Shown here in pieces: positions 684 to 3,518 of a DNA stretch of 3,518 nt (its first letter is position 1; the number at the start of each line of letters is the position of its first letter). Origin of the DNA: a virus (Duplodnaviria > Heunggongvirae > Uroviricota > Caudoviricetes); IMG/VR virus record IMGVR_UViG_2585427758_000017, positions 1 through 3,518 of that record; one strand, written 5' to 3'. The position numbers and the translations under genes are program-made. The notes beneath the pieces are model-generated. The model saw only the letters and a list, made by a program, of their open reading frames with translations. It did not search any database and was not told the DNA's origin.

Positions 684-1427
684 ATGACCACTATTACCAA
701 AGAACGTATTGAATTGTTCATTAAAAATCCGCTTGAAAACGGGCTTACCCGTGGTGAACAAATGGAACTGGCACGGATTGCGCTGGCATCGCTGGAAGCA
801 GATCCAGTTAAACGAGTTAACTCAGATCAGATGCGCCGAGTCTGCTTAGAAGCTAATCGCCATTTAGATAAATATGACGCGATGGCGAAAGAGGTAAATA
901 AGTTGCTTGGACGCATCGCCCCGCCAGCGCCGGTAGTGCCGGAAGAAGCAACTCCGGAAAACGTAGAAATGCTCTCTGGCTATGTTTCCACGTACAAATT
1001 AACCGATAGCGAGCGCGATATTGCTGCCGAAATATGGAACGCCTGCCGCGCCGCCATGCTTCAGTCCGGAAACTTTCGGGAAAACAAGAATTCGTCAACC
1101 AATAATTTTCGGGAAATCGCGGAAACGTCAACCAACTATCCGGCAATTCCTAGTGAGGTGTTGTCCGCAATCCTGAAGGTTGCCAGGATTCGTGCCGATT
1201 TCGATGATTTTGACGGTGACAGGCGAGGTATCGGTGATTGTCTGGATGAGGCTGAGCAAGAGCTTATCGTTACCATTAACAAATATGCCAGTCAGTTGGC
1301 AGCAGAACCTATAGCGCCTAATGACGTTCGAGAGCAGACAGCCATTCCACAAGTTCCGGTAACTCCGGATGGTTGGATAAGCTGTAGTGAGCGAATGCCG
1401 GACGACAGGCAGGAGGTGAATCAATGA
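684..1427 (+). CDS. Hypothetical modular prophage protein (247 aa): N-terminal module paralogous to the 1..408 gene, internal tandem repeat linker, C-terminal region ending in a DUF551-like WIS..R.P motif
   Basis: ATG 684 is preceded by an AAGGAG Shine-Dalgarno (672..677) with a 6-nt spacer. It shares the 146-bp near-identical segment with the first gene. The C-terminal residues WISCSERMPDD resemble, from memory, the start of DUF551 found in lambdoid accessory proteins; this is not verified. Confidence 0.7.
   Translation: MTTITKERIELFIKNPLENGLTRGEQMELARIALASLEADPVKRVNSDQMRRVCLEANRHLDKYDAMAKEVNKLLGRIAPPAPVVPEEATPENVEMLSGYVSTYKLTDSERDIAAEIWNACRAAMLQSGNFRENKNSSTNNFREIAETSTNYPAIPSEVLSAILKVARIRADFDDFDGDRRGIGDCLDEAEQELIVTINKYASQLAAEPIAPNDVREQTAIPQVPVTPDGWISCSERMPDDRQEVNQ
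918..1063 (+). repeat. Copy B of the ~146-bp near-identical direct repeat (perfect core 934..1054)
   Basis: Same alignment as copy A. Flanking sequence diverges immediately on both sides. Confidence 0.9.
1071..1136 (+). repeat. In-frame tandem duplication, 2 x 33 bp (25/33 identical), encoding NFRENKNSSTN / NFREIAETSTN
   Basis: 1071..1103 aligns to 1104..1136 with conserved TTTCGGGAAA and CGTCAACCAA cores. It starts 8 bp after the end of the 146-bp repeat, inside the 684..1427 CDS. Confidence 0.8.
1411..1416 (+). promoter_or_regulatory. Shine-Dalgarno AGGAGG for the candidate micropeptide
   Basis: Exact AGGAGG, 7 nt upstream of ATG 1424. It lies inside the 3' end of the upstream CDS. Confidence 0.5.
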
Positions 1428-1507
1428 GCTGGCCTGATGCAATCGTAACTCTGGGGGTGGTATTCGCAGCAGCGTTTGTTGTGTTCTCGATTTGTCGATG
1501 GGGATAA
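1424..1507 (+). CDS. Candidate 27-aa hydrophobic micropeptide (MSWPDAIVTLGVVFAAAFVVFSICRWG), putative single-pass membrane peptide
   Basis: ATG 1424 is preceded by a perfect AGGAGG (1411..1416) with a 7-nt spacer, the strongest SD in the window. The start overlaps the upstream stop as ATGA. It has a 17-residue uninterrupted hydrophobic core followed by CRWG, and its TAA stop (1505..1507) sits 4 nt before the next ATG. It is absent from the ORF track only because of its length. Confidence 0.35.
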   Translation: MSWPDAIVTLGVVFAAAFVVFSICRWG

Positions 1508-1511
1508 CCAC

Positions 1512-1754
1512 ATGTTCGCTTTGATTCAACGCGGTCAGATATACACGGACAGAGCCGGATACCCCGTGGTGATTACTCGCATCACTGAGCACTCAGTGTT
1601 CTTTCGACGGATGGACGGACGATCCGGGCGGGTACGCATTGGTGAGTTAAACTGCCTGTTCGAACATATTGACCACCAGGAGTACCGCAAAATTCTCGCG
1701 GACACTGAGCAGGAAAAGCACCTGAAAAAATTACGAGCCATAAAAAGGAAGTAA
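1512..1754 (+). CDS. Small hypothetical prophage protein (80 aa, MFALIQRGQIYTDRAGYPVVITRITEHSVFFRRMDGRSGRVRIGELN...)
   Basis: The ORF-track entry 1476..1754 starts at a TTG with no RBS. The in-frame ATG at 1512 follows a GGGGA purine tract (1499..1503) and directly follows the micropeptide stop, so it is preferred. Resembles small proteins commonly found just upstream of xis in enterobacterial prophages (possibly DUF4222-type, unverified). Confidence 0.6.
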   Translation: MFALIQRGQIYTDRAGYPVVITRITEHSVFFRRMDGRSGRVRIGELNCLFEHIDHQEYRKILADTEQEKHLKKLRAIKRK

Positions 1755-1757
1755 AGA

Positions 1758-1904
1758 ATGAATAAAGCATTTGAACGATGGGTCCACCAGCGTTACGGCA
1801 ATCGCTATGACCTGACGCGAGATGTTGACGGCTTCTACTGTCGTGAAGTTGTGAAGCGAATGTTTGAAGTGTGTTGCCACTGCCGTGGGCTGAGTGTTGT
1901 GTGA
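1758..1904 (+). CDS. Small Cys-rich hypothetical protein (48 aa, MNKAFERWVHQRYGNRYDLTRDVDGFYCREVVKRMFEVCCHCRGLSVV)
   Basis: ATG 1758 is preceded by an AAGGAAG Shine-Dalgarno (1745..1751) with a 6-nt spacer and lies 3 nt after the upstream stop. Its TGA stop (1902..1904) overlaps the xis SD. It carries a C28-x10-C39-C40-H41-C42 cluster. It is below the ORF-track length threshold. Confidence 0.45.
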   Translation: MNKAFERWVHQRYGNRYDLTRDVDGFYCREVVKRMFEVCCHCRGLSVV

Positions 1905-2204: not shown

Positions 2205-3518
2205 ATGGATAAAGTCAAATATCCAACAGGCGTCGAAAACCACGGCGGCACATTACGCATCTGGTTTAATTTTAAAGGTAAACGTGTCAGGGAAAATCTT
2301 GGTGTCCCTGACACTGCCAAGAACAGGAAGATCGCCGGGGAACTGCGGACATCAGTATGTTTTGCCATCCGCACAGGAAGCTTTGATTATGCTGCACAGT
2401 TCCCTGACTCCCCCAACCTTCAGGCTTTTGGGGTAAGTAAAAAAGAAATTACGGTGAAGGAACTTGAAGAAAAGTGGCTGGATCTGAAACGAATGGAAAT
2501 CTCTGCAAATGCATTCAATCGCTATGAATCCGTTGCAAGAACGATGGTTCCGAAAATTGGAGGCAGTAGACTGGTGTCATCGGTAACCAAAGAGGAATTG
2601 CTGTATATCAGGAAAGATTTGCTTACCGGGTATCAGAATTCAACGAAAAACAAAGCAGCAGCAAAAGGACGGAGCGTCGTTACTGTAAATTATTACATGA
2701 CGACAATCGCTGGAATGTTTCAGTTTGCTGCAGATCACGGTTACTTAGAAGCAAATCCCTTCCAGGGAATTAAGCCTCTTAAAAGAGCCAGGGCAGAGCC
2801 AGATCCGCTAACTCGTGACGAATTTATTCGCCTGATAGATGCTTGCCGACATCAGCAGACGAAAAACCTGTGGTCATTGGCTGTGTACACAGGAATGCGT
2901 CACGGTGAACTGGTCTCCCTGGCCTGGGAAGATATCGATCTGAAGGCAGGAACAATTACCATCAGGCGCAATTATACGAAACTTGGTGAGTTCACTCTAC
3001 CGAAAACTGAAGCAAGCACAAACAGGGTTGTGCACCTTATCCAGCCCGCTATCAGTGTCCTGAAAAATCAGGCTGAAATGACAAGACTGGGTAAGCAGTA
3101 CAACATCAAGGTGCAACTACGTGAATATGGACGTTCAGTGAACCATGAATGTACTTTCGTGTTTAACCCTCAAGTGGTTAGAAAAAGCGAACAGGTAGGT
3201 TTTGTCTACAAAGTCGATTCTGTAGGTGACTCATGGGAAACAGCCATTAAGCGTGCAGGGATCAGGCATCGAAAGGCATACCAGTCACGACACACTTATG
3301 CGTGCTGGTCATTATCTGCCGGAGCAAACCCAAGCTTCATTGCCAGCCAGATGGGCCATGCAAGTGCCCAGATGGTATTCAATGTATACGGAGCATGGAT
3401 GACTGACAGCAATGCAGAACAGATCGCAATGCTGAATCAGAAGCTGACAGATTATGTCCCAATGATGCCCCATAGTCACCAAAGTGACACCAGAGGCTTA
3501 TTAAAATCAGTAAGTTAA
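2205..3518 (+). CDS. int: Tyrosine recombinase, lambdoid phage integrase with N-terminal arm-binding domain (437 aa)
   Basis: GGAGG SD 2195..2199 with a 5-nt spacer. The N-terminus (HGGTLRIWFNFKGKRVRENLG) is arm-binding-like. Catalytic residues can be placed: Arg I R232 (2898..2900, TGMRHGE), Lys K267 (3003..3005, LPKTEA), Arg II R362 (3288..3290, SRHTYACW), His H385 (MGHAS) and nucleophile Tyr Y395 (3387..3389, NVYGAW). Resembles Rac IntR-type integrases from memory. Confidence 0.95.
   Translation: MDKVKYPTGVENHGGTLRIWFNFKGKRVRENLGVPDTAKNRKIAGELRTSVCFAIRTGSFDYAAQFPDSPNLQAFGVSKKEITVKELEEKWLDLKRMEISANAFNRYESVARTMVPKIGGSRLVSSVTKEELLYIRKDLLTGYQNSTKNKAAAKGRSVVTVNYYMTTIAGMFQFAADHGYLEANPFQGIKPLKRARAEPDPLTRDEFIRLIDACRHQQTKNLWSLAVYTGMRHGELVSLAWEDIDLKAGTITIRRNYTKLGEFTLPKTEASTNRVVHLIQPAISVLKNQAEMTRLGKQYNIKVQLREYGRSVNHECTFVFNPQVVRKSEQVGFVYKVDSVGDSWETAIKRAGIRHRKAYQSRHTYACWSLSAGANPSFIASQMGHASAQMVFNVYGAWMTDSNAEQIAMLNQKLTDYVPMMPHSHQSDTRGLLKSVS

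Follow-up and report, generated by a model that had tools for sequence, protein, structure and literature searches.

The gene at 684-1427 of the analysed DNA (3,518 nt, referred to here as the window) encodes a 247-aa phage accessory protein that stops just after the opening residues of a DUF551 domain. This raises the question of what became of the rest of the domain. The first-pass annotation had suggested a deletion or replacement in which the body of the domain was lost and a micropeptide and the next gene took its place. The evidence assembled here favors deletion without replacement. The 3' end of 684-1427 very probably (about 0.85) derives from a DUF551-coding segment by a deletion between two short repeats.

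Gene content of the window

The window corresponds to the integrase-proximal end of a lambdoid prophage's early-left accessory region, and all its genes are on the + strand. It begins with an ORF having an Ea22-like N-terminus (1-408; ORF list and family searches) and an 87-aa gene (410-673; phrog_1714), followed by the mosaic Eaa/Ea22-like accessory gene (684-1427; ORF list and PHROG families phrog_14306, phrog_60, phrog_5117, and phrog_660). Downstream are a 27-codon hydrophobic ORF from the ORF list (1424-1507), a DUF4222 gene (1512-1754; Pfam DUF4222, 51.3 bits), a 48-aa gene identified in PHROG and called orf48 (1758-1904), an excisionase (1913-2149; Pfam DUF1233), and a tyrosine integrase (2205-3518; Pfam Arm-DNA-bind_2 and Phage_integrase). 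The PHROG matches for 1512-1904, covering the DUF4222 and 48-aa genes, are phrog_285 and phrog_3871. From the excisionase and integrase, the truncated gene can be placed at the int-proximal end of that region. In the RefSeq annotation of related E. coli chromosomes, the same gene arrangement adjoins yecE (DUF72), with a 19-nt overlap between the 3' end of the integrase gene and the beginning of yecE (L001 4805-4823; L006 4574-4592), which puts the prophage at the yecE attachment site. An Rfam search of the window gave no match, and no promoter-like site was found in 1200-1800.

The 247-aa protein matches phrog_14306 with an E-value of 2.4e-53 and phrog_60 with 5e-33. Its close homologues are named "Eaa protein" or "DUF551 domain-containing protein" in the databases, and residues 1-242 are 96-100% identical to proteins bearing these names. 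By database naming and by phrog_60 and phrog_14306, the similarity that defines Eaa/EaA proteins of lambdoid, P22-like, and P1-like phages extends across the N-terminal and central modules. The central module was also found in POCJ13 gp74 and SJ46 J46_0093, and the identical 247-aa protein is encoded in two IMG/VR loci (L008 and L043). The N-terminal and central modules are intact, and only a stub is left of the C-terminal DUF551 domain. Membership in the Ead_Ea22 family was considered and rejected, as neither the 247-aa protein nor the ORF at 1-408 matched the coiled-coil profile Pfam PF13935 at E-values up to 10; PF13935 does match neighboring genes in related loci, and the N-terminal motif ELARIALASLEA is common to proteins annotated as Ea22-like.

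Several other features of the region were recorded. The ORF at 1-408 and the gene at 684-1427, two tandem Eaa/Ea22-like paralogues, have in common a 147-nt direct repeat with 98% identity (246-392 and 917-1063), and proteins of the PhiR5_1 type look like the N-terminus of the first ORF joined to the module of this repeat. A 33-nt internal tandem duplication with 78% identity (1071-1102 and 1104-1135) encodes NFRENKNSSTN/NFREIAETSTN within the linker of the 247-aa protein. On the - strand, a 154-aa ORF (1131-1592) lies over 684-1427 and weakly matches phrog_23547 (E 5e-05), a family of unknown function that probably consists of shadow ORFs called on the wrong strand; this ORF, too, was judged to be a shadow ORF.

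The DUF551 remnant

The frame ends with ...WISCSERMPDDRQEVNQ, or, in a longer reading of the C-terminus, with ...PDGWISCSERMPDDRQEVNQ and the stop. The TGG codon of W231 begins at 1374 and the TGA occupies 1425-1427, exactly where the first-pass annotation had placed them. In Pfam, residues 230-245 (GWISCSERMPDDRQEV; 1371-1418, + strand) align with profile positions 1-16 of the 68 positions of DUF551 (PF04448), with an E-value of 8.2e-05 and 23.8 bits, which only just exceeds the gathering score of 22 bits. The remaining positions of the profile, including the closing H-W-M-P-L-P-E-P-P, find no match in the protein, and full-length relatives (P0004, PhiR12_1, P0106, and the protein of contig L098) cover profile positions 1-68 at 42-69 bits. 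The 56 nt leading up to the junction are identical to genes with a whole DUF551 domain, so the resemblance of the stub reflects homology and not chance. The last 17 residues had therefore been correctly recognized as a truncated DUF551 opening.

The missing part was sought with a custom HMM, built from 46 full DUF551 domains of close homologues and run on the six frames of the window. It matched the stub alone (hmm 1-22, 26.7 bits), the next best score was -3.5 bits, and no other part of DUF551 was found in the window, in agreement with the earlier remark that nothing downstream continues the domain. Because the stub scores above the Pfam cut-off, PGAP names such proteins "DUF551 domain-containing"; many stub proteins carry this name in RefSeq, and identical junctions elsewhere are labeled "phage protein" or "hypothetical protein".

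Full-length homologues and the deletion junction

Most of the 120 best homologues are 83-100% identical to the window protein over the first ~230 residues, and in 106 of them the WISCSERMP and W-M-P-L-P motifs enclose a DUF551 core. Seven of the 120 cluster representatives end exactly as the window protein does, in ...MPDDRQEVNQ. This bears out the suggestion that a deletion removed the body of the domain. The cores of these homologues (P0001-P0120, taken from the equivalent of window 1401-1412 onward) comprise 54 unique sequences in 15 classes, and identity between classes has a median of 23% and a maximum of 35%. These variable cores sit between the invariant WISCSERMP and HWMPLPEPP in proteins at least 83% identical elsewhere; judged by these comparisons, the DUF551 core behaves as a hypervariable cassette.

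One full-length core matches the 5' side of the stub. It reads ...MPDDRQEVVVQTHSGWRYIAF...HWMPLPEPPQEV... and is referred to here as the parental-type core; it was found in a gut-metagenome contig and in seven complete E. coli genomes. The 5' flank of the stub contains the distinctive codon run GAC GAC AGG CAG, and the 23-mer ending at the junction leads into this core in contig L098 (human gut, ORNK01000182.1), which continues ...MPDDRQEVVVQTHSGWRYIAFYESHSGLFYDSPEGDVEYVLVTHWMPLPEPPQEVK to the stop and contains a full DUF551 domain (57.2 bits, profile positions 1-68). The flank is identical in the full-length genes of L098 and L115, and E. coli strain 20AR0300 is 100% identical over 201 nt. 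Two of the seven genomes, one of them L115, were read to the end of the gene: UID2309220026 ends in QEVNRG, and AR_0055 ends in QEVK and has DDGQ in place of DDRQ.

In the parental-type core, a first copy of the repeat, GCAGGAAGT (Q-E-V), lies right behind the opening motif. A second near-copy, GCAGGAGGT (Q-E-V), lies behind the closing PEPP motif and belongs to the universal 3' end of these genes. The two copies form a direct repeat that matches at eight of nine positions, with 6 nt perfect, in the same reading frame. They flank a core of 141 nt in the parental-type sequence, GACGACAGGCAGGAAGTTGTT...CCGCCGCAGGAGGTG, and the window corresponds to the parental-type gene minus the 141 nt (47 codons) between them. 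A single hybrid copy, GCAGGAGGT, remains at 1409-1417 (+ strand). Alignment with L098 and PhiR12_1 shows the window sequence, GACGACAGGCAG followed by GAGGTGAATCAATGA, as the 5' part of L098 and the 3' part of PhiR12_1 joined at GCAGGARGT. The comparison with full-length homologues that the first-pass annotation had proposed thus placed the breakpoint at this repeat. Only the parental-type core has Q-E-V at the 5' site; the 15 core classes of the 120 best homologues all lack it there, which explains why it was the parental-type core that was lost. A previous estimate from other core classes, with junction microhomology of at most 4 nt (GCAG), was overturned by the 9-nt near-repeat of the parental type.

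The full-length genes with core DDRQEVVVQTHSGWRYIAFYESHSGLFYDSPEGDVEYVLVTHWMPLPEPPQEV (20AR0300, UID2309220026, AR_0055, and ORNK01000182.1) share with the stub gene the opening motif and the 5' flank through GACGACAGGCAG, except for DDGQ in AR_0055, and carry both Q-E-V repeats. They differ from it in keeping the 141-nt core, in their tails (QEVK or QEVNRG), in their downstream genes, and in their N-terminal modules. The combination of this core with the QEVNQ tail and the small ORF, which would be the exact immediate parent, was absent from all sampled genomes, where full-length parental-type copies end in QEVK or QEVNRG. For this reason, a deletion within a single genome and an unequal crossover between two phages are not separable.

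The proposed course of events is as follows. A parental-type cassette of the form ...PDGWISCSERMPDDRQEV-VVQTHSGWRYIAFYESHSGLFYDSPEGDVEYVLVTHWMPLPEPPQEV-NQ and stop would have undergone recombination or replication slippage between the same-frame copies GCAGGAAGT and GCAGGAGGT, losing 141 nt (47 codons). This molecular route, which we infer from the repeats, may have been taken within one phage genome or by unequal crossover between a phage with the cassette and one with the QEVNQ tail. The remnant comprises the opening motif, a single hybrid Q-E-V, and the tail in its original form. As the repeats share a frame, the product is in frame; the TGA that overlaps the start of the small ORF is therefore preserved, together with the Shine-Dalgarno sequence of that ORF, and the upstream N-terminal and central modules stay open. 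Genes of the exo-xis/ea region are accessory, so the stub allele is tolerated, and it has been passed on along with the block of small ORF, DUF4222 gene, and orf48 through homologous recombination at the conserved flanks.

A variant of the junction was observed in E. coli CMZE063 (L001 ~2715, equivalent to window 1415), which reads CAGGAAGTG instead of CAGGAGGTG (GAAGTG versus GAGGTG) and has the base of the 5' repeat at the single mismatched repeat position. It may have arisen by point mutation, by crossover at another position, or in a second, independent deletion, and a strictly single origin of the junction is therefore unproven.

Distribution of the junction

A 40-mer centered on the junction, so that no match could be seeded without it, occurs at 126 places in the complete E. 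coli genomes, of which 124 out of 5,426 contain it. The junction is also present in 70 IMG/VR contigs. In IMG/VR, the 5' flank is always followed by the stub junction, and a search for the parental type returned stub forms only. Among 33 metagenome contigs with the 5' flank, 32 have the stub and one (L098) is full-length. An exact search for the 5' flank in GTDB species-representative genomes gave no match. In the phage collection, the junction occurs only in PhiR5_1, deposited as a complete phage genome with E. coli C as host; the related ΦR phages are described as a panel of lambda relatives for plaquing tests (bioRxiv 10.1101/2025.11.03.685801). One O104:H4 genome was read and encodes the stub protein; additional O104:H4 records match either the junction or its flank.

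The 32-mer of the 5' flank occurs at 129 places in 125 genomes; its surplus over 126 is at least partly due to the CMZE063 variant and the full-length genes of 20AR0300 and UID2309220026. The small-ORF segment was found at 196 places in 182 genomes, and about two thirds of its copies lie behind the stub. In 74 loci, the sequence in front of the junction encodes 31 distinct proteins, which represent at least 10 upstream architectures of 27-431 aa. Given these many architectures and the wide distribution, the stub allele is real and predates many recombination events.

The small ORF and the conserved downstream block

Within the last codons of the stub gene lies the sequence AGGAGGTG (1411-1418), read as a Shine-Dalgarno element (feature 1411-1427, + strand). 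It ends five bases before the ATG of the small ORF (1424-1426), and this ATG overlaps the TGA of the stub gene (1425-1427) as ATGA. By its position, AGGAGGTG probably serves as the ribosome-binding site of the small ORF, and translation of the ORF may be coupled to that of the stub gene. The 27-codon ORF (MSWPDAIVTLGVVFAAAFVVFSICRWG) is conserved behind stub and full-length genes alike. A diverged homologue, MSWPEAFAIVGVAMAIAAIFIFWG, again with a stop/start overlap, was found in the P1-like phage SJ46 (L005 2303-2377). Since this homologue keeps the overlap, the ORF is probably a real gene for a small membrane peptide. It has no annotation in the public records examined and no family in PHROG, Pfam, or NCBIfam; NCBIfam likewise has no family for the stub protein or the neighboring small genes. 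In one locus (L078), a different hydrophobic ORF of 40 aa occupies the position of the small ORF.

The order of genes behind a full-length domain is seen in PhiR12_1, whose 121-aa DUF551 protein (PV340549.1, XSB41575.1) is annotated as "Ea22". This protein reads ...DGWISCSERMPNDKQYVWCWG...VTHWMPLPEPPQEVNQ to the stop, and its complete DUF551 domain ends in ...HWMPLPEPPQEVNQ (PEPPQEVNQ and stop). Like the window, PhiR12_1 has the QEVNQ tail, the Shine-Dalgarno sequence and the ATGA overlap, a small ORF that differs from that of the window by 2 nt, the DUF4222 gene, and the 48-aa gene. It differs from the window in having a complete domain of another core class (NDKQYVWCWG...) and a shorter, different N-terminal part. 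As both the small ORF and the DUF4222 gene stand behind a full DUF551 domain in this phage, they are native downstream neighbors, and the downstream genes are unchanged by the deletion.

The stub allele travels as the left edge of the block of small ORF, DUF4222 gene, and orf48. From the stub to orf48, the DNA shows 95-100% identity in almost every locus long enough to include this part, with the exception of L047 and L067, where DUF4222 is only 72-73% identical. The block (window 1374-1904) is joined to two types of xis/int among loci L002-L076, with integrases of ~100% or ~70% DNA identity. No complete E. coli genome covers the whole window, the best reaching 95%, and the IMG/VR locus L008 matches 1-1904 at 99-100% and has the other of the two integrase types. 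A metagenome locus (L077 3884-4011; P0081, 130 member sequences) carries the stub allele minus a further 31 nt, comprising the Shine-Dalgarno sequence, the stop, and the start of the small ORF; its frame reads on through the small-ORF region in another frame up to the start of the DUF4222 gene.

Predicted structure and relation to Ea22 and YfdS

AlphaFold models with a homologue alignment were made for the window protein and the full-length P0004. In P0004, most of residues 231-290 (DUF551) have pLDDT values of 81-87; this is the only confidently modeled region, with strands predicted at 244-251, 258-265, 270-275, and 278-290. In the window protein, residues 205-247 have pLDDT below 50, with means of 28-36 in blocks of 10 residues from 211 onward, and no strands; the prediction contains no compact beta-rich folded domain at this end. 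The deleted part holds all four main beta strands; what is left would accordingly be an unstructured tail, and the allele a domain-loss allele. According to these models, the stub probably does not fold, and the function of DUF551 would be lost. A PDB sequence search with the full DUF551 protein gave no match at E up to 1, and Foldseek with the P0004 model (whole-chain mean pLDDT 55) gave no match in the PDB at E up to 0.001.

DUF551 has been described as a portable module, present in variant V2 of the Stx-phage Ea22 and in YfdS from CPS-53 (PMC10834534, PMC4776307). Ea22 of lambda and of Stx phages (PMC10834534, PMC7093339) comes from the same neighborhood, the early-left accessory region near xis-int. 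The Stx-phage variants resemble the window protein in being mosaic with variable C-terminal domains, DUF551 being the portable C-terminal module in V2, and GenBank labels the stub protein of PhiR5_1 as "Ea22". Ea22 of lambda and Stx phages favors lysogeny (PMC7093339). This pro-lysogenic activity belongs to those Ea22 proteins, from which the window protein differs in lacking a PF13935 match and in the deletion of its C-terminal domain. The available portion of the supplement to the Ea22 NMR paper was searched for the stub motif, in case the "16 amino acid segment shared by V1 and V2" corresponds to the stub, and the motif was not found. YfdS, from the cryptic prophage CPS-53, is, like the window protein, a prophage accessory protein with a DUF551 signature, but it has the whole domain. 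Its deletion mutant is reported to be sensitive to H2O2, and it is reported as part of the yfdQRST multicopy suppression (PMC4776307); these phenotypes are not transferable to a 16-residue stub.

Alternative explanations

The stub is commoner than the full-length parental type in complete E. coli genomes (124 versus 7). The core could be a fast-evolving specificity or target domain, and the allele without it could have been selected, for example by escaping a host defense that senses the domain or by altering an oligomer; its excess over the parental type and its presence on many backgrounds would then be explained. The 15 diverse core classes between invariant flanks, the open upstream reading frame in nearly all copies, and the presence of the stub in a phage deposited as a complete genome would fit such adaptive loss. 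Nevertheless, this explanation is quite unlikely. The literature assigns DUF551 no function (PMC10834534, PMC4776307), clonal sampling (O104:H4, for example, is represented by many isolates) and linkage to a block downstream that is itself successful both confound the counts, and the copies are so nearly identical that selection is not measurable. Furthermore, the metagenome variant with the additional 31-nt deletion looks like ongoing decay. A more specific form of the idea is speculative and improbable: the DUF551 core would act as a hypervariable specificity cassette, pitted against a host factor or defense in an arms race, and the core-less allele would be a selected null cassette. If true, the null cassette would go unrecognized yet leave the N-terminal modules and expression of the small membrane peptide in place, and its selection would explain why the stub is ~18 times commoner than the parental type in complete E. 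coli genomes. The excess of the stub may reflect hitch-hiking with the downstream block and clonal sampling, which are simpler explanations than selection, though selection could also contribute.

Replacement of the domain body by incoming DNA carrying the small ORF and the downstream gene is very unlikely. It would account for the missing body and for a small ORF that begins at the stop codon, but PhiR12_1 has the same tail, small ORF, and DUF4222 gene behind a full-length DUF551 gene. Moreover, the stub retains the original last five codons, so there is no foreign DNA at the junction. Of the event first suggested, the deletion stands and the replacement does not: the loss was internal and in frame, the QEVNQ tail and the stop survived, and the micropeptide and next gene were not put in the place of the domain.

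It is similarly hard to credit that the short ending is natural and ancestral and that the DUF551 cores were inserted later. The seven homologue clusters with this exact end and the frequency of the stub allele in E. coli are in its favor. Against it, every stub copy has the same junction and the same unique 5' flank, GACGACAGGCAG, while the full domains are far more diverse; the opening motif that was kept belongs to the DUF551 profile and lacks its closing HWMPLPEPP partner, and the two repeats of the full-length form explain the junction exactly. Homologues that end at this point, which the first-pass annotation had named as evidence against a truncation, do exist, but they are a derived minority sharing one identical junction. 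Finally, a sequencing or assembly artefact can practically be dismissed, as the identical junction comes from independent projects, in 124 complete genomes, 70 viral contigs, 32 metagenome contigs, and one isolated phage.

Implications for the Eaa/Ea22 family

Loss of the domain by deletion between the repeats makes the window gene an ordinary, tolerated, and widely circulating domain-loss allele of a mosaic Eaa/Ea22-like gene. The domain and the mosaic gene family are known, recombination between short direct repeats is a well-known event, and no new kind of system is involved. For annotation, the 16-residue remnant that passes the Pfam cut-off leads to RefSeq names announcing a domain that the proteins do not have. 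For the biology of these phages, the locus is a clean and fully traced case of domain loss between two short same-frame repeats, and it shows how an allele spreads across many lambdoid prophages via recombination at conserved flanks. PhiR5_1 provides a natural domain-deletion allele with matched full-length forms for work on the function of Ea22, Eaa, and DUF551.
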